From the IMG/VR virus record IMGVR_UViG_2529292920_000011, positions 1-12,932 of that record: a stretch of 12,932 bases of DNA; one strand, given 5' to 3'. Both the position numbers and the translations under genes were made by a program. Source of the DNA: a virus. Lineage: Duplodnaviria > Heunggongvirae > Uroviricota > Caudoviricetes. This document shows positions 1 to 12,932 of this stretch, piece after piece. The number at the start of each line of letters is the position of its first letter. Position 1 is the stretch's first letter. A model generated the notes under the pieces. That model saw only the letters and a program-made list of their open reading frames with translations, was not told where the DNA came from and searched no databases.

Positions 1-11
1 GTTTGGGGGAA
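1..11. other. Partial invertase crossover site 1 (right half only; centre dinucleotide lies 1-2 nt upstream of the window)
   Basis: Window opens with GTTTGGGGGAA, the reverse complement of the left half of site 3 (TTCCCCCAAACC) minus one base. It sits at the 5' boundary of cassette A, as sites 2-5 sit at the other cassette boundaries. Confidence 0.5.
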
Positions 12-536
12 GGCTCTGCACTGCCCGTTGGTGTACCTGTTCCGTGGCCCTCAGCCACTCCACCAACGGGCTGGCTGAAATGCAACGGCGCAGCATTTTC
101 TTCTGAAGATTACCCCAAATTGGCACAGGCTTACCCCGCGAACAAATTACCGGATCTACGGGGTGAATTTATCCGTGGCTGGGATGATGGACGTGGCTTG
201 GATGCTGGGCGTGCCTTGCTAAGTCTTCAGGATGACTCTTTTGAAGCGCACAGGCATGAGTCCTTTTTTTATGCGGGTATTTCACGTAATGAGACCCCAT
301 TAAAAAATCTTCCAAGTTCAGACGAGATGCTGACTTTAAGTTCCACAACTAATGCCTTGTCCCCGGACAGTATTGATGCCACCAACTCGTTAATTGGTAA
401 TGACGATTACAACTGTCTTATCGAAGGGAATAAAAATAACAAACGAACAGCGACAGGACTGAGTACCAGTATTGTCGGCACAGCAGAAACACGCCCCCGC
501 AACGTTGCATTCAATTACATCGTAAGAGCTGCATGA
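3..536 (+). CDS. Tail-fibre C-terminal receptor-binding cassette A (tail-collar type), 5'-partial; the constant N-terminal part of the fibre gene must lie upstream of the window
   Basis: Frame is open from the window edge, so the 'M' in the track is an internal TTG (Leu). Conserved N-terminal block GEGSALPVGVPVPWPSATPPTGWLKCNGAAFSSE..LPDLRGEFIRGWDDGRG, an HxH motif (HRHES) and the C-terminal ETRPRNVAFNYIVRAA are shared with the other cassettes. Motif pattern matches phage tail-collar / MdpB-like fibre tips. Confidence 0.8.
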   Translation: MGEGSALPVGVPVPWPSATPPTGWLKCNGAAFSSEDYPKLAQAYPANKLPDLRGEFIRGWDDGRGLDAGRALLSLQDDSFEAHRHESFFYAGISRNETPLKNLPSSDEMLTLSSTTNALSPDSIDATNSLIGNDDYNCLIEGNKNNKRTATGLSTSIVGTAETRPRNVAFNYIVRAA

Positions 537-555
537 AAACGTTGGTTTAGGGGAA
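530..555. other. Crossover site 2 (gix/hix-like, 12+2+12)
   Basis: TGCATGAAAACG-TT-GGTTTAGGGGAA. The AAAAC..GTTT core resembles Gin/Hin sites (AAACC-NN-GGTTT). Overlaps the TGA stop of cassette A and begins the conserved leader of cassette B. Site 4 is its exact reverse complement. Confidence 0.6.
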
Positions 556-576
556 GGCTCTGCACTGCCCGTTGGT

Positions 577-1023
577 GTGCCCGTTCCGTGGCCCTTAGCA
601 ACACCACCAACGGGCTGGCTGAAATGTAACGGTGCAGCATTTTCTTCTGAAATGTACCCCAATCTGGCAAAAGCCTACCCCACCAATAAATTACCGGATT
701 TACGGGGCGAATTTATTCGTGGCTGGGATGATGGGCGAGGAATTGATGCAGCACGCGCTTTATTGAGCATTCAAACCGGGATGTTGGAAAAACACCGCCA
801 TATTGTTGTAGCTAACGATGGATATGACACAAAGGATGAATGGGAGTTGGCCACGATTTTCAAAAAAACATATACACAAGGCAGGGGGCTTGATGCCACA
901 AATACAGGAGGGAGTTTGATTCCATCACCAACGCTTCATTCACGAGGAAGTATTGGTAACACAGGTGGTAGTGAAACCCGCCCCCGCAATATTGCATTTA
1001 ACTATATCGTGAGGGCGGCTTAG
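577..1023 (+). CDS. Tail-fibre C-terminal cassette B (silent alternative cassette; frame is open from 526, through site 2)
   Basis: Same conserved N-terminal block (PVPWPLATPPTGWLKCNGAAFSSEMYP...LRGEFIRGWDDGRG), HxH (HRH) and C-terminal ETRPRNIAFNYIVRAA, with a different middle segment. No promoter or constant region is attached, so it is expressed only after rearrangement. Confidence 0.7.
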   Translation: MPVPWPLATPPTGWLKCNGAAFSSEMYPNLAKAYPTNKLPDLRGEFIRGWDDGRGIDAARALLSIQTGMLEKHRHIVVANDGYDTKDEWELATIFKKTYTQGRGLDATNTGGSLIPSPTLHSRGSIGNTGGSETRPRNIAFNYIVRAA

Positions 1024-1209
1024 TTATATTCAACTGGCTGCTGCCAGTGGTATTTCCGGCAAGTTGATATCTGGTGCCATGTTTATATCCATTGCGTTCA
1101 GCGCGTCTATATAATCCAGCACGGCGTTAAGCCGGGTGGTTTCTGCCTGCGTCAACTTCCGCCGGCCTGCAACTTCAACTGAATCAGACTTATGGAAGCC
1201 ATTGCCGCA

Positions 1210-1641
1210 TCAGCCAGTGACTGGCGCTTGGTTTCTGCCCGCTTCTACTGCGGCACTATGTTGTGCCTCAGTATCTGTCACCCATTTTTCACCATCCCAT
1301 TTATCGTATGGCGTCGACGGGGAGATAGTGGTTGTATTTTTCGGGTAGTCACCTAGCGTCGTGATTTCTTCGGTGTTTCCCGTGTCAGTGTTATAGACGG
1401 TTTCACCACGATGATCTGGCGTATACTCCCATGAATTTAAATTCTCCGAACGGCGGATAGCATAGCCCGCTTTATGTGCGCCCGGGGCATCTAAACAGGA
1501 ATTTGCCGGAATACCGACACCCGCAGCAAGATATTCAGTTGATTCGGAAATATATTCCCGTGTCTCACCATCATAGTTATAAACGACGATGTTTCCTGCC
1601 TGTACGGCAATAAGGTCATCATTTAATATCGCGTTATTCAT
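1210..1641 (-). CDS. Tail-fibre assembly chaperone (Tfa, lambda Tfa / Mu U family), N-terminal 143 codons ending at an in-frame TGA; probable pseudogene whose remnant extends to about 1030
   Basis: Recalled lambda Tfa pattern is matched (VYN.., G.PANS, W...DHRGETVY, Y.KW.G..WV.DTEA). Start ATG overlaps the stop of cassette C (TAATG coupling). Beyond the TGA at 1210-1212 the same frame still encodes a Tfa-like C-terminus (KLTQAETTRLNAVLDYIDALNAMDINMAPDINLPEIP) down to a stop at 1030-1032. Confidence 0.6.
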   Translation of the reverse strand: MNNAILNDDLIAVQAGNIVVYNYDGETREYISESTEYLAAGVGIPANSCLDAPGAHKAGYAIRRSENLNSWEYTPDHRGETVYNTDTGNTEEITTLGDYPKNTTTISPSTPYDKWDGEKWVTDTEAQHSAAVEAGRNQAPVTG

Positions 1642-2099
1642 TATGCGGTTCTCACAATATAATTGAAGGCAATATTGCGTGGGCGGGTTTCATTCCCCTC
1701 TGAGGATTCCGTTCTGTATTGACTGGTAAATCTACCGTTAATTGCACCTTGCCGGACGGCGTTATCTGTCGACAACAGACTATCCCCGCCTTTGTCATTT
1801 GGCACCAGTACCGTGTTATCCCACGCATCCCATGACCGAATATTATGATAATGACTTCCTGTTAACCACCCCTGCATGCTTAAGATGACCCTTCCGGCAT
1901 CCACCCCGCGCCCATCATCCCAGCCACGGATAAATTCACCGCGTAAGTCTGGTAATTTATTGGTGGGGTAAGCCATTGCCAGTCTGGGATACATTTCAGA
2001 AGAAAATGCTGCGCCGTTACATTTCAGCCACCCCGTTGGCGGCGTGGCTGAGGGCCATGGAACAGGTACACCAACGGGCAGTGCAGAGCCTTCCCCCAA
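1641..2099 (-). CDS. Tail-fibre C-terminal cassette C (the only cassette followed by a tfa gene)
   Basis: Conserved leader GEGSALPVGVPVPWPSATPPTGWLKCNGAAFSSEMYP..LRGEFIRGWDDGRG, HxH (HYH), C-terminal ETRPRNIAFNYIVRTA. The 'M' is an internal TTG; the frame opens inside site 3. Confidence 0.75.
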   Translation of the reverse strand: MGEGSALPVGVPVPWPSATPPTGWLKCNGAAFSSEMYPRLAMAYPTNKLPDLRGEFIRGWDDGRGVDAGRVILSMQGWLTGSHYHNIRSWDAWDNTVLVPNDKGGDSLLSTDNAVRQGAINGRFTSQYRTESSEGNETRPRNIAFNYIVRTA

Positions 2100-2116
2100 A
2101 CCAACGTTTTCATGCG
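2091..2116. other. Crossover site 3 (inverted relative to sites 1 and 2)
   Basis: TTCCCCCAAACC-AA-CGTTTTCATGCG. Central AA on the plus strand, against TT in site 2. Lies at the D/C cassette junction and overlaps the stop of cassette D. Confidence 0.6.
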
Positions 2117-2583
2117 GCTCTTACGATGTAATTAAATGCAACGTTGCGAGGGCGAGTTTCTGTACCTACATTTCCACTAATTTCACCAAACCGTTTTACA
2201 TTACGAGAGCTAATGGCTCGTAGTGAGGAAGGCACATTTAAACCGGGTTCGTCTGTTTTAACTATTCCCCCGTCCCCGTATGTAGCCAGTATTCCAGGGT
2301 CTACTCCTTCCCGTGTACTTCCCGCGGCAAGTCCACCCCCGGTCCATAATTCCATATAGTGTGCATGATCCAAAATTGTGTGTGGCTGCCAATTAAGCAG
2401 AGCGCGGCCAGCATCCACCCCGCGCCCATCATCCCAGCCGCGAATAAATTCGCCCCGTAAATCCGGTAATTTATTGGCGGGGTAGGCCTTTGCCAGATTG
2501 GGGTACATTTCAGAAGAAAATGCTGCACCGTTACATTTCAGCCAGCCCGTTGGCGGCGTGGCTGAAGGCCATGGAACGGGCAC
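2110..2583 (-). CDS. Tail-fibre C-terminal cassette D
   Basis: Conserved leader, HxH (HAH), C-terminal ETRPRNVAFNYIVRAA. Its first 63 residues are near-identical to cassette B, matching the inverted-repeat geometry. Confidence 0.75.
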   Translation of the reverse strand: MPVPWPSATPPTGWLKCNGAAFSSEMYPNLAKAYPANKLPDLRGEFIRGWDDGRGVDAGRALLNWQPHTILDHAHYMELWTGGGLAAGSTREGVDPGILATYGDGGIVKTDEPGLNVPSSLRAISSRNVKRFGEISGNVGTETRPRNVAFNYIVRAA

Positions 2584-2604
2584 ACCAACGGGCAGCGCCG
2601 AGCC

Positions 2605-2630
2605 TTCCCCTAAACCAACGTTTTCATGCA
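2605..2630. other. Crossover site 4
   Basis: TTCCCCTAAACC-AA-CGTTTTCATGCA, the exact reverse complement of site 2. Lies at the E/D cassette junction and overlaps the stop of cassette E. Confidence 0.6.
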
Positions 2631-3214
2631 GCTCTTACGATGTAATTGAATGCAACGTTGCGGGGGCGTGTTTCTGCTGTGCCGACAATACTGGTACTCA
2701 GTCCTGTCGCTGTTCGTTTGTTATTTTTATTCCCTTCGATAAGACAGTTGTAATCGTCATTACCAATTAACGAGTTGGTGGCATCAATACTGTCCGGGGA
2801 CAAGGCATTAGTTGTGGAACTTAAAGTCAGCATCTCGTCTGAACTTGGAAGATTTTTTAATGGGGTCTCATTACGTGAAATACCCGCATAAAAAAAGGAC
2901 TCATGCCTGTGCGCTTCAAAAGAGTCATCCTGAAGACTTAGCAAGGCACGCCCAGCATCCAAGCCACGTCCATCATCCCAGCCACGGATAAATTCACCCC
3001 GTAGATCCGGTAATTTGTTCGCGGGGTAAGCCTGTGCCAATTTGGGGTAATCTTCAGAAGAAAATGCTGCGCCGTTGCATTTCAGCCAGCCCGTTGGTGG
3101 AGTGGCTGAGGGCCACGGAACAGGCACACCAACGGGCAGTGCAGAGCCTTCTCCTAAACCAACGTTTTCGTCTTTATCCCTACCTATACCAACTATGTAT
3201 TTTTCACGAAACAA
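2624..3214 (-). CDS. Tail-fibre C-terminal cassette E (inverted duplicate of cassette A; silent here)
   Basis: Residues 20-196 are identical to cassette A. The frame opens only at 3226, immediately after a stop, so no constant fibre N-terminus is attached in this orientation. Confidence 0.75.
   Translation of the reverse strand: MFREKYIVGIGRDKDENVGLGEGSALPVGVPVPWPSATPPTGWLKCNGAAFSSEDYPKLAQAYPANKLPDLRGEFIRGWDDGRGLDAGRALLSLQDDSFEAHRHESFFYAGISRNETPLKNLPSSDEMLTLSSTTNALSPDSIDATNSLIGNDDYNCLIEGNKNNKRTATGLSTSIVGTAETRPRNVAFNYIVRAA
3149..3174. other. Crossover site 5 (outermost site, adjacent to the invertase gene)
   Basis: TTCTCCTAAACC-AA-CGTTTTCGTCTT. The inner half is conserved with sites 3 and 4; the outer half diverges, as expected for a site bordering non-invertible DNA. 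It lies 55 bp upstream of the invertase ATG, as gixR/cixR lie next to gin/cin. Confidence 0.6.
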
Positions 3215-3228
3215 AGAGGATGTTTTTT

Positions 3229-3828
3229 ATGCAAATTGGCTATATTCGTGTGTCAACAAATGACCAGAACACGGATTTACAACGCAATGCACTGAACTGC
3301 GCAGGATGTGAACTGATTTTTGAAGATAAAATCAGCGGAACGAAATCAGCCAGACCGGGATTGAAAAAACTGCTCAGAACGCTATCAGAAGGAGATACGC
3401 TGGTTGTCTGGAAGCTGGACAGACTGGGCAGAAGTATGAAACACCTGATCACGCTTATTGAGGAATTGCGGAAAAAAGGTGTTAATTTCCGTAGTCTGAC
3501 GGACAGCATTGACACATCAACACCCATGGGGCGTTTCTTTTTTCACGTCATGGGGGCTTTAGCCGAAATGGAACGTGAATTAATTGTAGAGCGTACACTG
3601 GCCGGGCTGGCAGCAGCACGCGCACAAGGACGCATTGGCGGACGTCGCCCGAAGTTGACAAAAGAACAACACGAGCAAATAGCGAGGCTGATTAAATACG
3701 GTCATGACAGGAAACAACTGGCGATCATTTACGACATCGGCATATCGACGATTTATCGTTATCACCCTGTAGGCGATATACAGGCTGAAGAAACAACCAG
3801 GCAGACTCAGGAAAATGAAAACCGCTAA
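3229..3828 (+). CDS. Site-specific DNA invertase, serine recombinase of the Gin/Pin/Hin/Cin family
   Basis: N-terminus MQIGYIRVSTNDQNTDLQRNAL with the catalytic Ser in the YIRVSTNDQ motif; central VVWKLDRLGRSMKHLI and GRFFFHVMGALAEMERELI; C-terminal HTH (GISTIYRY). AGAGGA Shine-Dalgarno 8 nt upstream of the ATG at 3229. The track ORF 3034-3828 is an upstream in-frame extension running through site 5 and is unlikely to be real. Confidence 0.93.
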   Translation: MQIGYIRVSTNDQNTDLQRNALNCAGCELIFEDKISGTKSARPGLKKLLRTLSEGDTLVVWKLDRLGRSMKHLITLIEELRKKGVNFRSLTDSIDTSTPMGRFFFHVMGALAEMERELIVERTLAGLAAARAQGRIGGRRPKLTKEQHEQIARLIKYGHDRKQLAIIYDIGISTIYRYHPVGDIQAEETTRQTQENENR

Positions 3829-3847
3829 TCTGACCATTAGCGGTTTT
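3818..3847. terminator. Bidirectional intrinsic terminator between the convergent invertase and gpU genes
   Basis: Perfect 12-bp stem AAAACCGCTAAT / ATTAGCGGTTTT with a 6-nt loop (CTGACC). The invertase TAA stop lies inside the stem. T-run on the plus strand; TTTTCATTTTCC follows on the minus strand. Confidence 0.6.
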
Positions 3848-3854
3848 GCGTTAA

Positions 3855-4349
3855 TCAAAACAGCCCTTTAACGGAGCTGGCCGCGCTGTTAAGAGATGAT
3901 GTCACCTTGTCTTTGAAGCCGGACAGCATATCACTGAACGATGAGGATTGCAGGCGCTCCCGCAAATCCTCATCACAGCGTTCAAGAGTCAGTGAAAATT
4001 CTATCTTTTTCGCCTTACCGTAGCGATCAAACTCGGAGCGGGTCGTATTCGTTTCAGTCAGTACATACATGCCGTAAATCTGCCCGACACCATCAATCAG
4101 AGGCCAGGGGCGTCCTGTATATGCCTGCGTGGTCAGCAGCGAAAGCGACACTTCGCCACCTGTAATTTCAGGATAAAGCACGCCAGAAAGCACGATGCGA
4201 TCATCACCTGCACCGATATACTGCCAGCTTGCTGAGCGGTTTACGCGCTCATTTTTCACATGCCGCCAGCTTTTGTTTTGCTGTAACTGCTGATGCGGCA
4301 ATGTGCGCAGCTCAAAAACAAACATGCCGTAGATCATCATCATGGCCAT
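3855..4349 (-). CDS. Tail protein gpU-like (P2 U family)
   Basis: 164-aa ORF directly downstream of the tape measure gene on the same strand, the usual gpU position. Contains WRHVKNERV and LSGVLYPEITGG segments that I recall from gpU proteins. True start may be an internal Met. Confidence 0.75.
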   Translation of the reverse strand: MAMMMIYGMFVFELRTLPHQQLQQNKSWRHVKNERVNRSASWQYIGAGDDRIVLSGVLYPEITGGEVSLSLLTTQAYTGRPWPLIDGVGQIYGMYVLTETNTTRSEFDRYGKAKKIEFSLTLERCDEDLRERLQSSSFSDMLSGFKDKVTSSLNSAASSVKGLF

Positions 4350-4355
4350 GACTCC

Positions 4356-7199
4356 TCAATCTTTATCGTAAAAACTGCCACGCCCGGCACGGGCGCGCCG
4401 TTCCATCTCTGCCCTGACCATTTCGCCGACCAGTTTCGCCAGTTCGCGGGGATTCTGTGTAACAACGTTATGCAGATGAACATGAATTTCACCACCAAAT
4501 CCGGAGGCAACAGGCTCCCGGTTACGGGAAGTTGCAGGAACTGATGCCACTGGCGATCGTATGGCCTCCGCCACCGGGCGGGAGCTGGCCGCAACAACAG
4601 GGACCAGCGCCGGAGGCAGCGGAGCCGGAACCACGGGTGTGATATTAATTGCGGGGGCAGGCTTACTGACCTGCGCAATCTTCCGCTCCTGCCACTCCCC
4701 ACGAACAGCAAGTGCGCGGGGCAGGTTCTTAAAGACAATATCGCCGGGGCCAATGCGTTTTTTCGTCTCATCAACCAGCTTACCTGTGTTATCAGCAATT
4801 TTGCTGAGTCTGCGTAGCGTGCCGGTATTGCTGTCTGTGAGCGGTTTGTTGTCTTTGGGGTTATCGCCTCCGGTGCCATTGCCATTTTCCACAGGCTTCG
4901 GCGGATTGATTTTCGCAATGTCTCCCTGAAACAGAGCAACCTTGTCCTGAAGAATGGCCGCACGCTGTGCGTCTTCGATTTTCTTTCTCGCCCTTTCCGC
5001 TTCATCCGGAAGCACACCGAGTTTTTCAAGTATCCACGCCAGCGTATCCAGCAACATTTTTGCAGGCGTCAGAACAAGCTGTAGCGCGCCACCAAGAACG
5101 TTACCGAATATCTCGCCAGCACTGGTACATTTATCCAGCGTTTCCTTGCTGGACTCCATCGGTGACAACAGCGATTTAAACCAGTTAAACACCTGGCTGA
5201 TCCCGCTTCCGATTGCGTCAAAAACAGGGCCAAACCGTTCAAAGGTTTCGCGCAACGGGGTCAGCCTTTCCATAATCCCGCTGAACACCCCGGCAAAAAA
5301 TGCCCTGATGGGATCCCAGTATTTCCAGATGAGAACGGCAGCTCCGGCAAGCGCAGCCACGATAAGACCGACCGGACTGAACAACGCCCCGATAGCGCCT
5401 CCCAGTAAAGAAACGGACCACGTCACCATTCCCCATAACGCAGGCAACACTCTGACAACATTCATTGACCGGGTAAGAATGTCGAAACCAAGACGCAGGG
5501 TGGCCAGCTTCCCGTAAAGCACCCCAATAACCAGTGACAACGAGCCAATCGTTGCAGTCATTGCCAGCAACGCACCGCCTGCTATCAGTAGCTGGCGCGT
5601 CAGTACCGGATGGGCCTGCGCCAGCGAGGTGATTTTTTCAAGCACCCGCGTGAACCACTGCGTGACAGAACGCAGCGGACCGTCAACCAGATCACTGATG
5701 CGAATACGAAGACCTTCCCATGCGCTGTCGAGATTTTTCAGGTCCCCATCAAGATTATCGGCCATTACTTTTGCGACGCGATCGGCCTCTCCCCTTGCCC
5801 CCTGCAATTCTCTGGTCAGTTTTTGCAGCTCTCCTGAACCAGCCGCCGCAACAAGCGTCTGCAAACCAACGAACGCCTCTTCTCCGGCGATGTCCTTGAA
5901 GAAGGAAACCTGGTCCACCTGTCCGTATTTTTGTGTCGCCTTATAGAGATCAAGCAGCACATCCTCCATCGGGCGCATTTTGCCTCTGGCGTCAGCAACT
6001 GACACTCCCAGCTCTTTCAGCGCATCAGCCGCAGCTTTTGGCGGTGATGCAAGGCGGGACAGACTTGCGCGCATGGCCGTACCAGCATCGCTTCCGCGAA
6101 GACCATTATTGGCAAGCATCCCGGCCATGGCCGCCGCTTCTTCAAGACTGATACCAAGTTTTGCGGCAACCGGACCGGTATACTTCATGGTTTCGCCCAG
6201 CGCGCGTAAATCAGTATTGGTCCGGGTGAATGCTGCTGTCAGCGTATCGCCAACCCGGTCCATTTGATCGGCTGTCAGGTTGAACTGTGTGAGGATATTG
6301 GAGCCTATATCAGCCGTCTCGCCGAGTTCGACGCCACCTGCCAGCGCCATATTAAGAACACCGGGCAATGCGGCCTGAATGGCCTGCGGAGTAAAACCAG
6401 CCATTGCCAGAAAGCTCTGCCCACTGGCGGCATCACTCGCAGTAAACTGTGTTTCAGAGCCAAGTTTTAACGCCTGCTCACGCAGCGCCTTAAACTGCGG
6501 GCTGTTTTTGTCGATTCGCGTCAGTGCCTGAACGCGGGACATCTCTTTGCCGAACCCGATCGCAGGCTGCAAAAAACGCCCGGCAGCATAGCCGCCCGCC
6601 GCTGCCGCACCAATTGCCAGCGCACCACCTGTTTTCAGTTTTCCCGCAGTTTCCTGCGCGCGCGAATACCGCTCACGCGCCCTCGTTACACGCGCAAGCG
6701 CCTGCCGTTCGCGTTCAAGCTGGTTGTTGTACTGTTCGGTGCGTCTGATGGCCTGCTGAATGGTGTTATCGCTGCCTGTCAGTGAAATGCCGTGGCGTTT
6801 CAGCTCTCCGCCAAGCTCCCGCATTTTCTGAATTTCCCGTGTGCGCGATTCATTCAGGCGTTCAAGCCGGGTGCTTAACTGCTGCATCAGCTTTTGTTGT
6901 TTTTCGCTGAGCACTGTACCCGTGCGTTGTAACTGATTAAGGGCGTTAAGCTGGCGTCGTGCTTTCACGATGCCCGCATCCGCTTTACTGACAGCGTCAC
7001 GGGCGCGCTCAAATGATCGCGCCTGACGCTCGAGATTTTTGATCGCCCCCTGCGTTCGCTGGATGGAGTCACCAAACTGCCCCATCAGGCGGCGGGCATT
7101 TTCGGCAGGCCGGGTCAGCCTGTCAACGGCGCTGAAAGCGACCCGGATATCAAGAGTCTTCATTGTCTGCATTCCCGCTGCGAAGTGCCGCCCGCTCAC
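4356..7199 (-). CDS. Tail tape measure protein (P2 gpT-like)
   Basis: Roughly 940-aa ORF with a coiled-coil N-terminal third, a Gly/Ala-rich central hydrophobic stretch (GALAIGAAAAGGYAAG) and a long helical/hydrophobic C-terminal half. Sits between the E/E' and U genes. True start is probably ATG 7172 (MQTMKTLDIR) or 7163, overlapping the E' stop. Confidence 0.9.
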   Translation of the reverse strand: MSGRHFAAGMQTMKTLDIRVAFSAVDRLTRPAENARRLMGQFGDSIQRTQGAIKNLERQARSFERARDAVSKADAGIVKARRQLNALNQLQRTGTVLSEKQQKLMQQLSTRLERLNESRTREIQKMRELGGELKRHGISLTGSDNTIQQAIRRTEQYNNQLERERQALARVTRARERYSRAQETAGKLKTGGALAIGAAAAGGYAAGRFLQPAIGFGKEMSRVQALTRIDKNSPQFKALREQALKLGSETQFTASDAASGQSFLAMAGFTPQAIQAALPGVLNMALAGGVELGETADIGSNILTQFNLTADQMDRVGDTLTAAFTRTNTDLRALGETMKYTGPVAAKLGISLEEAAAMAGMLANNGLRGSDAGTAMRASLSRLASPPKAAADALKELGVSVADARGKMRPMEDVLLDLYKATQKYGQVDQVSFFKDIAGEEAFVGLQTLVAAAGSGELQKLTRELQGARGEADRVAKVMADNLDGDLKNLDSAWEGLRIRISDLVDGPLRSVTQWFTRVLEKITSLAQAHPVLTRQLLIAGGALLAMTATIGSLSLVIGVLYGKLATLRLGFDILTRSMNVVRVLPALWGMVTWSVSLLGGAIGALFSPVGLIVAALAGAAVLIWKYWDPIRAFFAGVFSGIMERLTPLRETFERFGPVFDAIGSGISQVFNWFKSLLSPMESSKETLDKCTSAGEIFGNVLGGALQLVLTPAKMLLDTLAWILEKLGVLPDEAERARKKIEDAQRAAILQDKVALFQGDIAKINPPKPVENGNGTGGDNPKDNKPLTDSNTGTLRRLSKIADNTGKLVDETKKRIGPGDIVFKNLPRALAVRGEWQERKIAQVSKPAPAINITPVVPAPLPPALVPVVAASSRPVAEAIRSPVASVPATSRNREPVASGFGGEIHVHLHNVVTQNPRELAKLVGEMVRAEMERRARAGRGSFYDKD

Positions 7200-7416
7200 G
7201 CCAGCTAACCACTTCGCCGGGCGTCATCATGAAGATTTCGGCGGGCGACCAGTTAAAAATGGCGGCAATATCCGCCACCAGATCTTCGATGTGCTCAAAG
7301 CACACCAGGGTGATTACGCTGCCGTCTCCTGCACGCTCTTCGCGCCAGAGTCTGGCTCGCTCATAAAATTTACAGCCACAGCGCACAGCTGAATAAAATC
7401 GCGTGACGACATTTTT
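7150..7416 (-). CDS. E' extension frame (-1 relative to gpE); expressed only as an E+E' fusion by programmed -1 frameshift
   Basis: The -1 frame is open from 7416 to a stop at 7150-7152 and overlaps the 3' end of gpE (7314-7416). Slippery candidates lie in the overlap. Same arrangement as P2 E/E' and lambda G/GT. Confidence 0.6.
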   Translation of the reverse strand, partial: KNVVTRFYSAVRCGCKFYERARLWREERAGDGSVITLVCFEHIEDLVADIAAIFNWSPAEIFMMTPGEVVSWRERAALRSGNADNEDS

Positions 7417-7688
7417 TTAATCATCACTTCATCCAGTCGTGGCGAGGTCACGCGAGGCAACAGCGTAAACATGGTATCCGCTTTCAGATTCAGCACATCA
7501 GACAGCGACAGACCACGCAGGGATCCAGCCTGCTCAATAGCCCCGGTGATCTCCACATACGTGATTTTTTCGCCACCACGCTCAATTTGTCGGGTCAGTT
7601 TTACGCCACGTTCGACAGCCATATCCTCACCTGCCGTCACATCATCCGCCACGGTGTTATTCCGGGTTTCAGTATCGATGTCTTTCAT
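7314..7688 (-). CDS. Tail assembly chaperone gpE-like
   Basis: 124-aa ORF between the tube and tape measure genes. AGGAGA Shine-Dalgarno 6 nt upstream of the ATG at 7688. A -1 frame (E') overlaps its 3' end. Confidence 0.75.
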   Translation of the reverse strand: MKDIDTETRNNTVADDVTAGEDMAVERGVKLTRQIERGGEKITYVEITGAIEQAGSLRGLSLSDVLNLKADTMFTLLPRVTSPRLDEVMIKKMSSRDFIQLCAVAVNFMSEPDSGAKSVQETAA

Positions 7689-7743
7689 CAGTTGTCTCCT
7701 TTTCAGTCAGAGGCGACGCACTGCGCCGCCTGCATATTACTTA

Positions 7744-8256
7744 TCAGCCAAGCCCAAGCGCGGAACGGATACGGTCAGGCACAATGTCCTTGCCGTCCTT
7801 CCGGTAGATGTGGTTCAACAGGTCGATTTCCCACAGCGGGCGATCGTTAACGCTCAGCTTGTAGTAGGTGTTTTTGACAGCGTAAGTGTGTGATGTGGCT
7901 TCGCCCTGTTTGGCTTCCCCCATATCAATTTCCGTCACACGCCCGCGCATCTCGATTTCATACAGATCGCTTTCTGCATCGGTGTAGTATTCACCCGCAA
8001 AACGCAGCAGCGTGCCGTCAATCGTGCCGCCATATTTAAGGAACAGCGCACGAACAGCTCCCCCCATGACAAAACTCGCATCAAGCGCGGAGTCGTCCAG
8101 ACCGAGATCAATACTTACCGCCCCCATCATGCCACCCCCCCGGTAGCTGTCGGTTTTGCGCGTCAGTTTGGGCGGCGTGACGGATGTCACTTTACCCACT
8201 TCGTTTTCACCATCCACAAACAACGTAAAAAAGCGAAGATGTTTTGGTACAGCCAT
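7744..8256 (-). CDS. Tail tube protein (P2 FII-like)
   Basis: 170-aa ORF immediately downstream of the sheath gene, with a 1-nt stop/start overlap (TGATG). Size and position are typical of the FII tube family. Confidence 0.88.
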   Translation of the reverse strand: MAVPKHLRFFTLFVDGENEVGKVTSVTPPKLTRKTDSYRGGGMMGAVSIDLGLDDSALDASFVMGGAVRALFLKYGGTIDGTLLRFAGEYYTDAESDLYEIEMRGRVTEIDMGEAKQGEATSHTYAVKNTYYKLSVNDRPLWEIDLLNHIYRKDGKDIVPDRIRSALGLG

Positions 8257-9440
8257 CAGGCACCTCCCAGCACCGCAAATGCGGGACCAAAGAATTCATC
8301 AGTAAACGTCTGGTAAAGCTCCATGTCTTCCAGTGGCGGAACGGGCGTATATTTGTAGCGAATACGCACACGTCCCTGACGTAAATTCGTGGTGCCGTTA
8401 TCCACCACGTCATACCAGCACTCCGCGCCAATCAGTTTCCCGGCAGTAACCAGCGAATCCAGTTTTGCCCTGATGGCACTGATAACATCCTTCACGTTCG
8501 CAGGCGTCAGTGGACTGTCGATGGTTTCAAATTGCGCTTCCGCAATTGAATCAGCCAGCACCTGTGCGGCTCGGGTATACACCTCAAAGATGTAGGCGTT
8601 CGTTTCCGGTGTGCGGTTGCCCCAGAAGCGGAATCCGTTGCGACGAATAATGGTCGTGATTTCTTTGTTATTGAGGCTGTTGGCATCACTGTCTTCGGCC
8701 TGCAACGACCAGAACACATGCCTGGACATTCCCAGCACATTTTTAACCGGAACGTTGGACAGCGATTTGTGCCAGCCCTGCTCATGGTCAATGTACGCAC
8801 GAAGGCCGCACGCATAAGCAGGCGCGGGGAACGTTTCGTTTTTTCCACTTTTCGGGTTGTAGGCGATGAAGTCCGGCCATAAGAGCATCACCTCACGTTC
8901 GTTGAATTTCTGGCGGTAGGTAATCGCCTCAGCCATCGTGTTACAACCATGACATGTGGCATACACAAACGCGCGCAGTTTACCCGCAATCACGCACAGG
9001 GATTTCGTTACCGCCTCCGTGTCCAGCTCCGGCGCGGCCAGAATACGCGGACGGTATCCGATGCTTTCATCCTGCTCTGCAACAAGCAGCGCATACATCC
9101 CCGTATAGCTGCCGTCATCCTCAGAACCACCGATAACCAGTTGATCCTGCGTCTTACCGTCTTCTTCTTTGTGTTCAGCCACGCGAACGACGATCACCTT
9201 TGTGCTCACCTGGTCTGCGATGGCCTTAAGCGCACGATAAAGCGTCCCCGTTGTCCCGCATTTTCCCAGCACGTCATTGACGCGGGTCAGCAGTGTGGGC
9301 TTGTTCAGCGGGAACAGCTTCGCGTCCGCATCATCCGCCGTTGCCACGATACCGATAACGCTGGAATCAACATCGTTAATCGCTGTTACCAGGTCGGTAT
9401 TTTCCGTAACACGGGCACCATGAAAACGAGTTTCACTCAT
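8256..9440 (-). CDS. Contractile tail sheath protein (P2 FI-like)
   Basis: 394-aa ORF (MSETRFHGARVTENTDLVTAINDVDSSVIG...) of the size and position expected for a P2-type sheath, first gene of the sheath-tube-E-T-U block. Confidence 0.9.
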   Translation of the reverse strand: MSETRFHGARVTENTDLVTAINDVDSSVIGIVATADDADAKLFPLNKPTLLTRVNDVLGKCGTTGTLYRALKAIADQVSTKVIVVRVAEHKEEDGKTQDQLVIGGSEDDGSYTGMYALLVAEQDESIGYRPRILAAPELDTEAVTKSLCVIAGKLRAFVYATCHGCNTMAEAITYRQKFNEREVMLLWPDFIAYNPKSGKNETFPAPAYACGLRAYIDHEQGWHKSLSNVPVKNVLGMSRHVFWSLQAEDSDANSLNNKEITTIIRRNGFRFWGNRTPETNAYIFEVYTRAAQVLADSIAEAQFETIDSPLTPANVKDVISAIRAKLDSLVTAGKLIGAECWYDVVDNGTTNLRQGRVRIRYKYTPVPPLEDMELYQTFTDEFFGPAFAVLGGA

Positions 9441-9597
9441 AGCTTCAGCCCCTTGTATCCGTTAAATGATTCGGCAACAATCATCACCCACCACGCGCGT
9501 AATCTCACCCCTGCGCCGTTCTCCCGCCACGGCGACAACAAAAAGCAGTCCCCCCCTCCGCACGCACATGCGACCATGCCGCACAGGGAGGGAACAG

Positions 9598-10338
9598 ATG
9601 ACCGACACCACCATGCAATTGCTCAGTCAGGGCACAGACCCCGTAAAAATGCCGGATTTTGATATTCTCGCGGAGGGGAAAAGGCTGTCCGGCGTGGCAG
9701 AGCGCCTGATGAGTCTGTCACTGACCGACAACCGGGGATTTGAAGCAGACCAGCTCACCATCACGCTGGATGATGCGGATGGTCAGTTGCAGCTACCGCC
9801 ACGGGGCGCGCGTCTGACGGTTCTCATTGGCTGGAAAGGCGAACCGCTGACAGAAAAAGGTTCTTACATTGTTGATGAAATCGCACACGAAGGACCGCCG
9901 GACAGGCTGACGGTTTCAGCCAGAAGCGCAGATTTTCGGGATGAATTTAACGTTAAACGTGAGGTGTCCTGGCATGATGTGACCGTTGAGCGTGTGGTAT
10001 CCGCCATCGCTCATCGGTACGGCCTGAAACCGCAAATCAGCGAAATGCTGATGGATATCGAAATCGACCACGCCGACCAGACCGAAGAAAGCGACATGTC
10101 CTTCCTTACGCGCATGGCGGAAATGCTGGGCGCAATCACCACGGTAAAAAGCGGTAATCTGTTATTCATCATGCCAGGCGGTGGCGTGAACGCACAGGGC
10201 CAGCCGTTGCCATCGTTCGCCATCACACGCAGCAGCGGCGATCGCCATCAGTTCCGCATTGCTGACCGCGAGGCGTATACGGGGGTACGCGCCTACTGGC
10301 TTGATCTTAATTACGGGAAAAAGAAAAAGTCAGCGTGA
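9598..10338 (+). CDS. gpD-like tail protein (P2 late control gene D family), N-terminal 246 codons, ended prematurely by a frame change
   Basis: ATG at 9598 preceded by GGGAGGG (the track start 9466 is an upstream extension). Sequence ...LTVLIGWKGEPL...LTVSARSADFRDEF...SFLTRMAEMLGA...YTGVRAYWLDLNYGKKKKSA* stops inside an A-rich tract. Confidence 0.75.
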   Translation: MTDTTMQLLSQGTDPVKMPDFDILAEGKRLSGVAERLMSLSLTDNRGFEADQLTITLDDADGQLQLPPRGARLTVLIGWKGEPLTEKGSYIVDEIAHEGPPDRLTVSARSADFRDEFNVKREVSWHDVTVERVVSAIAHRYGLKPQISEMLMDIEIDHADQTEESDMSFLTRMAEMLGAITTVKSGNLLFIMPGGGVNAQGQPLPSFAITRSSGDRHQFRIADREAYTGVRAYWLDLNYGKKKKSA

Positions 10339-10706
10339 AACGCCGCAAACCGCCCAAGCTCAAAAAGGAGAAAAGCAGCAGCCGTGAAGGTGATTATATG
10401 GAAGGCGCGGAAGGCAATGTTTTTGTGTTACGCAAGACTTATCAGAACGAGCAGGCAGCAAGACGCGCAGCGGCGGCAAAGTGGCAGCAGCTACAACGCG
10501 GAGCCGCATCATTCTCCATCACGCTGGCGCGTGGACGTGCAGAACTCTACCCCGAAATGCATGGCACGGTAACAGGATTTAAAAGCGAGATTGATAATCA
10601 GGACTGGATTATTGCAAAAGCCGAGCACACCATTGATAACAGCGGCTTTACCACACAGCTTGAGCTTGAAGCAAAAATCCCGGAATGGATAGCAGAAACA
10701 GAATAA
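10335..10706 (+). CDS. gpD-like tail protein, C-terminal part in the -1 frame (frame open from 10311)
   Basis: ...AAAKWQQLQRGAASFSITLARGRAELYPEMHGTVTGFKSEID...GFTTQLELEAKIPEWIAETE is the continuation of a single gpD. Together the two parts give about 370 aa, the normal gpD size. Confidence 0.7.
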   Translation: MKRRKPPKLKKEKSSSREGDYMEGAEGNVFVLRKTYQNEQAARRAAAAKWQQLQRGAASFSITLARGRAELYPEMHGTVTGFKSEIDNQDWIIAKAEHTIDNSGFTTQLELEAKIPEWIAETE

Positions 10707-10834
10707 ATCTCTTAAAAATATTATTTTTGAGATGTGCTTCTACACTGACAGTAAGAACAAAAGATAATGTATCAGCCCACTAGATGTCAGAGGTTGGGGC
10801 ATCAACCAGATGCTAACAATAATACGGATGTTTT

Positions 10835-10864
10835 TCCCACATGACAGAGGAAGTCAAGTATAAT
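10835..10864 (+). promoter_or_regulatory. Candidate sigma70 promoter for the AT-rich island genes
   Basis: -35 ATGACA (10835-10840), 18-bp spacer, -10 TATAAT (10859-10864), about 90 bp upstream of the ATG at 10955. Found by eye only. Confidence 0.3.
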
Positions 10865-10954
10865 CTTCACAGTCCCTCCCGTCCAAGGGAATATGACTCA
10901 ATAGTAAAAGTTCCAGTTTAGTTAGTAGACCCACACTTTATAGAAGAGTAAATC

Positions 10955-11902
10955 ATGATTGGACAATTTTTAAGTGCAACAGAGATTTTAGCAAAGAACT
11001 ATGTTCGTAATAAAATGGTTAAAAATCCATTTTATTCGAATTTAAAATGGAATTTTGTTGAAAAAAACATCATAAGATTAACATCCTCACCGGTTAAATC
11101 AGTACTTTGCATATCAGCTTTTTCATTTGTACTACTTTATGTTGGATATTTAAACGAATTATTTATAAAAAAGAATCTTTTACATTATTTCCCGTTTAGG
11201 CATTCATTAACCGAATGGCAAACAACCATTTTAAGTGGCCAATTGACAATTATTGGTATTGTATACCCCCTTGTTATAGGTTTAGTAAGTGTCTTATTCC
11301 AAAAAAAAGCAGATAGAAAAATAGCCCAAACTGCTTATCAGCGTTACTCAGGATTCATGCTTGCTGGACTCAGCGGGCTTTTCTTATCAGGATTTATACT
11401 TCTCAGTGTACTAATTAAAACTGTCTTTGGAAGTTATCTTTATGGTATAGCCTGTCTAATCAGCATATTATGGCTTTTGATAAACATAGTTCTTTCTATT
11501 TGGTTCTTTATCGTGAGCCTTGAAATTCTTGATGATGTAAAACGGCAAATAATTATAAAGCGATACATTGCCTTCGAAATAGTAATGCCCCATATTTGTA
11601 ACAAAATCTCAGCCAATCTTAGGTTATACCCTATCTATCAAAAACATAACTATTCAAATTTAGAAATCAAGCAAGCCGATTACAAAGGAGAATACATATC
11701 TGTGGCTAGCAGTTATTCTAAGGAAGATGAGTTAAGTTTATATCACCGTCCTTTTCAACTTATTCTTAATCTTATTAATTACCAACTAAAAAAAAGAATC
11801 ATTTTGCGTCATTTGTCATTGGTGATAATCGTGCAAAAGAAACAGAATCCACGGGTAAGATACTTTTTAGCGTTAAAAATATCAAACCAGACAGCTTATT
11901 AA
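10955..11902 (+). CDS. Multi-pass membrane protein of unknown function (4-5 predicted TM helices), first part of a probable larger gene
   Basis: 315-codon open frame in about 30% GC DNA, where stops are frequent. Hydrophobic segments: VLCISAFSFVLLYVGYL, LTIIGIVYPLVIGLVSVLF, GFMLAGLSGLFLSGFILLSVLI, YLYGIACLISILWLLINIVLSIWFFIVSL. No family recognised. Confidence 0.65.
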   Translation: MIGQFLSATEILAKNYVRNKMVKNPFYSNLKWNFVEKNIIRLTSSPVKSVLCISAFSFVLLYVGYLNELFIKKNLLHYFPFRHSLTEWQTTILSGQLTIIGIVYPLVIGLVSVLFQKKADRKIAQTAYQRYSGFMLAGLSGLFLSGFILLSVLIKTVFGSYLYGIACLISILWLLINIVLSIWFFIVSLEILDDVKRQIIIKRYIAFEIVMPHICNKISANLRLYPIYQKHNYSNLEIKQADYKGEYISVASSYSKEDELSLYHRPFQLILNLINYQLKKRIILRHLSLVIIVQKKQNPRVRYFLALKISNQTAY

Positions 11903-12932
11903 TAAAAATACTTAAGCAATGTTTTTATAGGGCTCCGATTAAAGGAGGAGATTTTTCCGTAAGTCTTACAATGCAGGCTATAACAGCAGATACGTATATG
12001 TATCTGCGGGATTCTGATCTCTTTAGTTTTGACGATGCTATCTCTGCATTAATTAATAACTTTAATAATCTCTGCGATTTGTATTTTTTTCAAGATGACA
12101 ATACCAACAATAATTTCTTACTGATCACTACAGAATTATTTGAACGGAGTTTTCAATATGAGTTTTCAGATGAAGTTTATAAAATATCAAATAATTCCAT
12201 GGATAAAATTAATCTTTCTGAAAGATTTTTTGAATTATGTCTTTGGAGCGGAGTGCGTATTCTTAATAATAGAAAACATCTTATCAGCAATGAACTTTGT
12301 ATCTATATGGGAATTACTCGTTCACAATGGTCAATATTAACAGAATGGTTCCGAAACAACCAATCACTCTTAAATGCCTCGCTTCGTTCACGTTATAATC
12401 GTATATTAAGAACCTATGCCACTGTTTGGGAGCAATATCAAGAAAGCATCAACTTTCGTTTCTGCAATACAGAGAATTCAGATTTATTTGAATTATTTTG
12501 CAAAACGCAACTACAAGAACTTCCATCGATCATTATTGATGCAACACAGACTCGCGATCCTTCTACTATTGATACAGCCGTCGATCTTATTAACCGATGG
12601 CAGCACTCAATGAATATTGACAGCCATTCGGTAGAAAAATACAGTTACCAAGGCCAGCTTTTTAACCCGGGTTTTTTCATCTCCAAAAAACTAAACTTCA
12701 ATTCAGACAGAGAGTGGTTCAATATTGCCATCATAAATGCGTTGACTGACATGCGTATATGCACATGTCTTTATCTGACATCAAGAATCAATACTTCTGA
12801 CAAACTAATGACACATTACATTAAACTTATTTTAGAGGGTAAACTTATTGACCAAACCGGTGGATATGAAACTCCCACTGAAGAAATTGATAATGCAAGC
12901 CAACTAATCAAGATATTAGTTAGAATCTGCCT
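11779..12932 (+). CDS. Long ORF of unknown function, 3'-partial (runs off the window); probable continuation of the membrane-protein gene in the -1 frame
   Basis: I translated this frame by hand; it has no stop from 11779 to the window end (about 384 codons) in AT-rich DNA. First ATG is at 11971; AGGAGG at 11944-11949 is too far from it to be a convincing RBS. It is not in the ORF track, presumably because it has no stop in the window. Confidence 0.6.

Follow-up and report, generated by a model that had tools for sequence, protein, structure and literature searches.

Two Single-Base Indels Interrupt the tfa Gene

The tail fibre assembly (tfa) gene in a draft contig of Escherichia coli DEC1E is interrupted by two single-base indels in short G runs, which occur in this contig only, and undoing both of them restores a widespread allele. 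The privacy of the two indels to one contig, their nature as ±1 changes in G runs and the presence of a further private indel in the tail gene gpD suggest that the disruption is a sequencing error rather than a mutation. The window analyzed here was the whole contig AIEZ01000017.1 (12,932 bp; assembly GCA_000249135.2), which carries the tail module of a P2-like prophage (gpU, tape measure, gpE, tube, sheath and gpD) and, to the left of a serine DNA invertase gene, five tip cassettes with a Pfam Collar domain and one tfa.

As deposited, tfa is a 143-codon ORF on the minus strand (1210–1641, with its ATG at 1641), annotated as EHU27475.1 and named "tail fiber assembly protein [Escherichia coli DEC1E]" in GenBank. 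The first-pass annotation, made from the sequence, had described it as translationally coupled to cassette C, and the TAATG at 1641, in which the TAA stop of the cassette overlaps the tfa ATG, is indeed real. It had also placed the end of the frame at an in-frame TGA (1210–1212), with the C-terminal Tfa signature continuing in the ATG frame down to 1030 and the middle of the gene better conserved in another frame. Three-frame translation agreed with each of these points. The TGA at 1210–1212 (minus strand) is read in a shifted frame nine codons past the first indel, and the last nine residues of the 143-aa product (GRNQAPVTG) are out-of-frame sequence. From 1164 to 1237 (minus strand), Tfa residues from approximately 135 to 160 (AETKRQSLADAAMASISLIQLKLQAG) are found in the neighbouring frame only, where the translation reads KRAETKRQSLADAAMASISLIQLKLQAGG; the DNA of this segment is 100% identical to that of intact alleles. 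The conserved Tfa C-terminus (1030–1161, minus strand; RKLTQAETTRLNAVLDYIDAL...PLAAAS*) lies again in the ATG frame, which past the stop reads ...GRRKLTQAETTRLNAVLDYIDALNAMDINMAPDINLPEIPLAAAS* to 1030 and closes with the TGA at 1030–1032. In GenBank, the last 41 codons (1030–1155) are annotated as a separate Caudo_TAP ORF.

The indels were placed by an alignment across 1030–1641, and exactly two 1-nt differences in length from intact relatives were detected; in related E. coli genomes, the intact tail fibre assembly gene has 612 nt, which is the length of 1030–1641. At 1238–1240, the gene strand (minus) reads GGG (CCC on the plus strand), one G above every intact relative (GCGGCAG to GCGGGCAG), which produces a +1 frameshift after codon 134. 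At a spacing of 77 nt, the gene strand reads GG at 1162–1163, one G below the intact relatives (GCCGGGCGG to GCCGGCGG), and this −1 change restores the original frame. The 26 codons between the two sites are out of frame, and the total length stays at 612 nt.

The unique block between the B and C crossover sites (553–2115; 1.56 kb) was compared with three other loci, from which it differed by the two indels and two synonymous substitutions (1312 and 1315) only. Both substitutions, A-to-G changes in tfa codons 109–110 (TCAACA to TCGACG), were missing from a set of 5,426 complete E. coli genomes, in which the best match reached 98.7%. No more than 153 nt separate them from either indel, so that the four private differences of the 1.56-kb block are clustered in tfa.

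Analysis with the Caudo_TAP profile (PF02413; cut-off 22.1 bits) gave a corresponding picture. The 143-aa product covers positions 1–68 of 131 (39.5 bits) and retains the fibre-binding N-terminus together with the first half of the profile, while the repaired 203-aa product covers positions 1–130 (111.8 bits, E = 3e-32). Precomputed domain matches for tfa comprised Caudo_TAP_N and Caudo_TAP. A complete two-domain Tfa in one frame is thus absent from the sequence as written and present only when both 1-nt indels are undone. Further, a promoter scan of positions 1–3900 found no credible independent tfa promoter, with one weak site compared to 5.8 expected by chance.

The Intact Allele Is Widespread and the Interrupted One Private

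The repaired 203-aa product is identical, residue for residue, to a protein on 515 public contigs, and the 143-aa product was found on AIEZ01000017.1 only in a collection of 15 billion proteins. The tfa segment is present in 76 of the 5,426 complete E. coli genomes, none of which carries either indel; the best identity among them (98.7%) corresponds to the two indels alone. In IMG/VR, neither indel-bearing 26-mer had any match, and the intact form of the first site was found at 21 loci. All 10 loci retrieved with the exact 203-aa product are in frame, as are, at both sites, five aligned intact relatives that include those of the lambdoid phage HK106 and a P1-like phage. The Tfa proteins of these two phages are 75–82% identical to the repaired protein. 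At the far end of the family, T4 gp38 shares 27% identity with it, and phage homologues from 82% down to about 27% identity have approximately 175–200 residues and span nearly all of the 203. The possibility that the 143-aa product is a conserved short Tfa, which had been named as the observation that would overturn the disruption, was pursued with these relatives, and they turned out to be about 200 aa long and in frame.

Two further sources of the indels were considered and rejected. Recombination with a paralogous allele does not account for them, since the DNA between and around the indels is identical to the intact allele and the divergent alleles of TUM1880, HK106 and 813R1 keep the frame. 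Neither did we find, reading the sequence by eye, a GATC or CCWGG at either site that would point to an artefact of Dam or Dcm motifs.

Both the gene and the kind of system to which it belongs are known. As in the family of lambda Tfa, Mu U and P2 G (PF02413), the repaired gene fits nearly the whole Caudo_TAP profile and is located directly downstream of a fibre tip, here with a stop-codon overlap. In Mu Tfa and Pam3 gp25, fibre binding is described as the task of a variable N-terminal domain, and trimerisation and assembly as that of a conserved helical domain at the C-terminus (PMC9608196). The repaired Tfa shares this two-part layout with Mu Tfa, whereas the gene as written loses the conserved C-terminal half to the shifted frame and the stop. 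Non-invertible sister prophages have a somewhat shorter Tfa of 175 aa, compared to the 203 aa of the repaired protein. A search of solved structures with the repaired Tfa gave no significant match.

Other Homopolymer Differences in the Contig

Compared to the closest complete genome (99.1% identity), the contig has four single-base homopolymer deletions, at 3844, 3855, 10324 and 11788. The first two, at 3844 and 3855, fall between genes, and an assembly made independently from run SRR094159 has them too. That at 11788 (A9 to A8), by which a gene of 1,039 aa is divided into products of 315 and about 700 aa, is also present in three other independent assemblies, and the length of this tract is a genuine polymorphism. 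With three of the four differences real or reproducible, the contig is therefore not simply riddled with errors.

The deletion at 10324 (A6 to A5; GGAAAAAGAAAAAAGTC to GGAAAAAGAAAAAGTC, window positions 10318–10328) is private to the contig. As a result, gpD, an essential tail gene that encodes 369 aa in relatives, is broken into products of 246 and 123 aa, encoded by ORFs at 9466–10338 and 10335–10706. The A6 tract is kept in relatives that differ by only one or two substitutions over 3–5 kb, and at two related loci (L019 and L025) the gene call for gpD is uninterrupted, with 369 aa.

The SRR094159 assembly is identical to the window over 3086–10321 except for 4 nt inside the shufflon, and it contains a tape-measure allele found nowhere else. 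Its contig ends at 10321, inside the A tract of gpD. Since clonal reads that agree on the length of a run would give no graph break at such a point, we infer that the SRR094159 reads disagree on the length of this homopolymer. Neither the 143-aa nor the 41-aa product was recovered from the SRR094159 assembly, which is suggestive only, and look-ups of these two products and of the cassette D product returned the GenBank contig only. A look-up of the annotated 164-aa product of cassette B gave no match, probably owing to its non-ATG start, and of ten hypothetical truncated products that would end at one or the other indel, none was in the collection, bar one unrelated NCBI fragment. As a separate observation, the SRR094159 contig (L017) is, beyond the crossover site on the invertase side, like cassette B and not E at positions 3101, 3104, 3108 and 3122, which could reflect another isomer in the culture or an artefact of the k-mer path.

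Origin of the Interrupted Frame

The reading that we favour, and consider probable on the sequence comparisons, is that the additional and the missing G are homopolymer errors of the draft assembly; if so, the real gene would be intact and the C fibre normal. The minus strand of 1030–1641 would then hold an ordinary 203-residue Tfa gene directly after tip cassette C. The draft assembly would have read GG as GGG at 1238–1240 and GGG as GG at 1162–1163, and these misread run lengths would have put 26 codons out of frame and exposed the TGA. The ratio of two indels to two substitutions greatly exceeds that expected from natural divergence. Like known homopolymer errors in drafts, the changes are private, of ±1 and in mononucleotide runs, they break an otherwise perfectly conserved gene, and at one run of the same contig, that of gpD, the SRR094159 assembly, built independently from matching reads, is interrupted. 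Against this reading, consensus homopolymer errors are usually met in longer runs than these G runs of only 2–3 nt, prophage gene decay does occur in nature, two homopolymer errors 77 nt apart require locally poor coverage, and the homopolymer differences at 3844, 3855 and 11788 proved to be real or reproducible. The drafts of the DEC collection were presumably produced by pyrosequencing, although no argument made here depends on this.

A possible but less probable origin is that both indels are real and that the tfa of DEC1E is a pseudogene private to this strain, located in a P2-like prophage that is decaying and whose gpD is broken as well. The indels are, after all, present in the deposited sequence, natural slippage likewise favours runs, the broken gpD fits a defective prophage, and at least one other homopolymer change of the contig, that at 11788, is a genuine allele. 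The consequences would also be plain: positions 69–131 of the Caudo_TAP profile are lost, and the product would keep the fibre-binding N-terminal domain without the C-terminal helical domain, and would presumably be unable to drive trimerisation. As this C-terminal domain is described as mediating trimerisation and assembly (PMC9608196), a genuine 143-aa product would most likely be inactive, and the C-type fibre, possibly together with any other tip that needs this Tfa, would not assemble. However, the second indel is downstream of the new stop and so under no selection, and two independent neutral indels within 77 nt are improbable next to two substitutions in 1.56 kb. Moreover, the allele is unseen in the 5,426 complete genomes, IMG/VR and the protein collection, and the SRR094159 assembly, which breaks at the A run of gpD, lacks the 143-aa product. 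It has also been considered that the 143-aa product is a complete and functional short Tfa and the similarity downstream a remnant, given that its start properly overlaps the stop of cassette C and that it passes the Pfam threshold for Caudo_TAP (39.5 bits). This is highly improbable, and is refuted by the sequence comparisons: only the first 68 of 131 profile positions are covered, the nine C-terminal residues come from the wrong frame, the DNA past the stop shows no decay relative to intact alleles, every homologue, even at 27–37% identity, has approximately 175–200 aa, and the 143-aa form occurs in no other genome. Least credible of all is programmed +1/−1 recoding, or the use of the G runs as a phase-variable switch of the chaperone. 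Both changes do fall in G runs and conserve the net length, but the runs have just 2–3 nt, no slippery heptamer or stimulatory element is evident, and the relatives are all in frame with invariant length at both sites.

The original description of tfa as disrupted consequently stands as far as the frame is concerned, while the break itself is private to one draft contig and more likely an error than biology. Until reads have been checked, a chaperone gene that looks disrupted in a draft contig should not be taken for biology. Should the DEC1E indels be real, they would provide a natural tfa knock-out in which the need of the tips for the chaperone could be tested.

Invertible Tip Cassettes

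The serine DNA invertase gene (3229–3828, plus strand) is intact and encodes 199 aa with Resolvase (E = 7e-52) and HTH_7 (E = 1e-11) domains according to Pfam. Cassette B (577–1023, plus strand; 148 aa) is convergent with tfa, and cassettes C (1641–2099; 152 aa), D (2110–2583; 157 aa) and E (2624–3159; 177 aa from its crossover site) follow on the minus strand, all four with a Collar domain. The extension of the cassette E ORF to 3214 is non-coding DNA beside the invertase gene. Each of these cassettes has a crossover site at its 5′ edge: that of B is a 26-bp sequence at 530–555 on the plus strand (TGCATGAAAACG-TT-GGTTTAGGGGAA), and those of C (2091–2116), D (2605–2630) and E (3149–3174, beside the invertase gene) are on the minus strand. 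The AAAACGTTGGTTT cores are located at 536–548 on the plus strand and at 2110–2098, 2624–2612 and 3168–3156 on the minus strand, and the contig starts inside a further crossover site. By comparison with gix and hix, we take the 26-bp sites to be of the Hin/Gin type.

The leftmost cassette, A (3–536, plus strand), is not distinct from E. Positions 36–560 are 100% identical over 525 bp to inverted E (3124–2600), whereas the conserved 5′ parts of the other cassettes share only 85–91% identity with each other. The layout is that of an isomer with the order B, tfa, C, D, E and invertase, to which the E-then-B junction of another isomer is added on the left; this left extension ends at the site at which a junction with the constant fibre gene would be expected. 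The contig is therefore probably a chimera of two coexisting inversion isomers, with A being E and four distinct tips rather than five, although A and E might instead represent a true duplication. For inversion itself, the evidence from the sequences is indirect, namely that related genomes hold different isomers and that the contig has E twice in opposite orientation and ends in a site. More generally, caution is called for with contigs that extend across invertible segments, since a cassette can be duplicated in them.

A similar arrangement is known from enteropathogenic E. coli E2348/69, in which a P2-like prophage carries a multi-inversion tail-fibre module (Goldberg et al. 2014, PMC4272514) whose coexisting isomers in culture were shown by experiment, for this strain only (PMC4272514). 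As in DEC1E, a serine invertase adjoins several alternative 3′ fibre cassettes with inverted crossover sites, and the tfa segment is present at 97.4% identity; the apparent fifth cassette of the contig, A, which duplicates E exactly, sets it apart from that module. The multi-inversion module is related to the Mu G, P1 C, e14 P and p15B Min segments, and shares with segments of the Hin/Gin/Cin/Pin/Min type a Resolvase plus HTH_7 recombinase and inverted sites of approximately 26 bp at the 5′ boundaries of the cassettes.

One tfa among Several Tips

In line with the initial observation that only cassette C carries a tfa, no adjacent tfa was found at any of the other cassettes. The tips A, B, D and E had been listed as lacking a neighbouring chaperone gene, and this is true of all of them, except that A and E are the same cassette. 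The one-tfa layout is nothing peculiar to DEC1E but a conserved design of the family. Each of 14 related shufflon loci, which have 4–6 cassettes, contains exactly one tfa, and in every case this gene follows directly on the same cassette C of 152 aa. The order and orientation of the cassettes vary widely among related loci, with the constant fibre gene facing tfa in about half of the 14 loci and running with it in the other half. Cassette C and tfa nevertheless stay together in every related locus examined, that is, in the 14 shufflon loci and TUM1880. In the two-tip pinE segment of TUM1880, C plus tfa appear as a module and the other tip has a tfa of its own. Each alternative tip likewise has its own tfa in Mu, P1 and e14, in contrast with one of 4–6 tips here.

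The tips all share a conserved collar N-terminus and the ETRPRNIAFNYIVRAA C-terminus and have unrelated centres in between. In HK106 and the P1-like phage, similarly built tips with yet different centres are each paired with a Tfa that is 75–82% identical to the repaired protein. This indicates that the type of Tfa is not tied to the variable centre of C, and chaperone independence of the non-C tips is no more than a possibility. The proposal that the locus mixes chaperone-dependent and chaperone-independent tips was drawn from gene order only, and the comparisons do not support it.

It is conceivable, although we consider it rather unlikely, that the non-C collar tips fold without a dedicated chaperone or that one Tfa serves all tips. 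The former would mean that the module does mix chaperone-dependent and chaperone-independent receptor-binding tips. If, on the other hand, one Tfa recognised the conserved collar and C-terminal frame of every tip, inversion would also toggle the supply of the chaperone. How one Tfa relates to several collar-type tips is thus a question for the whole widespread family of P2-like shufflons rather than for the DEC1E locus.

Prophage Context

The prophage is a mosaic. From about 3770 rightwards, the tail module is 99.1% identical to that of three prophages (L003, L025 and L026) that have a classical non-invertible long fibre and a 175-aa Tfa and are without an invertase. Near-identity to them is restricted to 7955–12932 (two substitutions), most of the 75 mismatches being located in 3770–7955. 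The invertase and cassette block is 95–99% similar to other prophages, and among the near-identical relatives of the tail module no sibling genome was found for positions 1–3770, which include the tfa region.

Between gpD and ogr lies the AT-rich cargo gene of 1,039 codons mentioned above (10955–12932), which runs past the end of the contig and is present in full in a sister prophage (L003:13189–16308). Comparison with Pfam and PADLOC assigned it to no family, and it could be an uncharacterised moron or a defence candidate. Its N-terminal part looks hydrophobic, as judged by eye, and the GC content over 11001–12000, within this gene, is 0.32 compared to approximately 0.54 in the tail genes.
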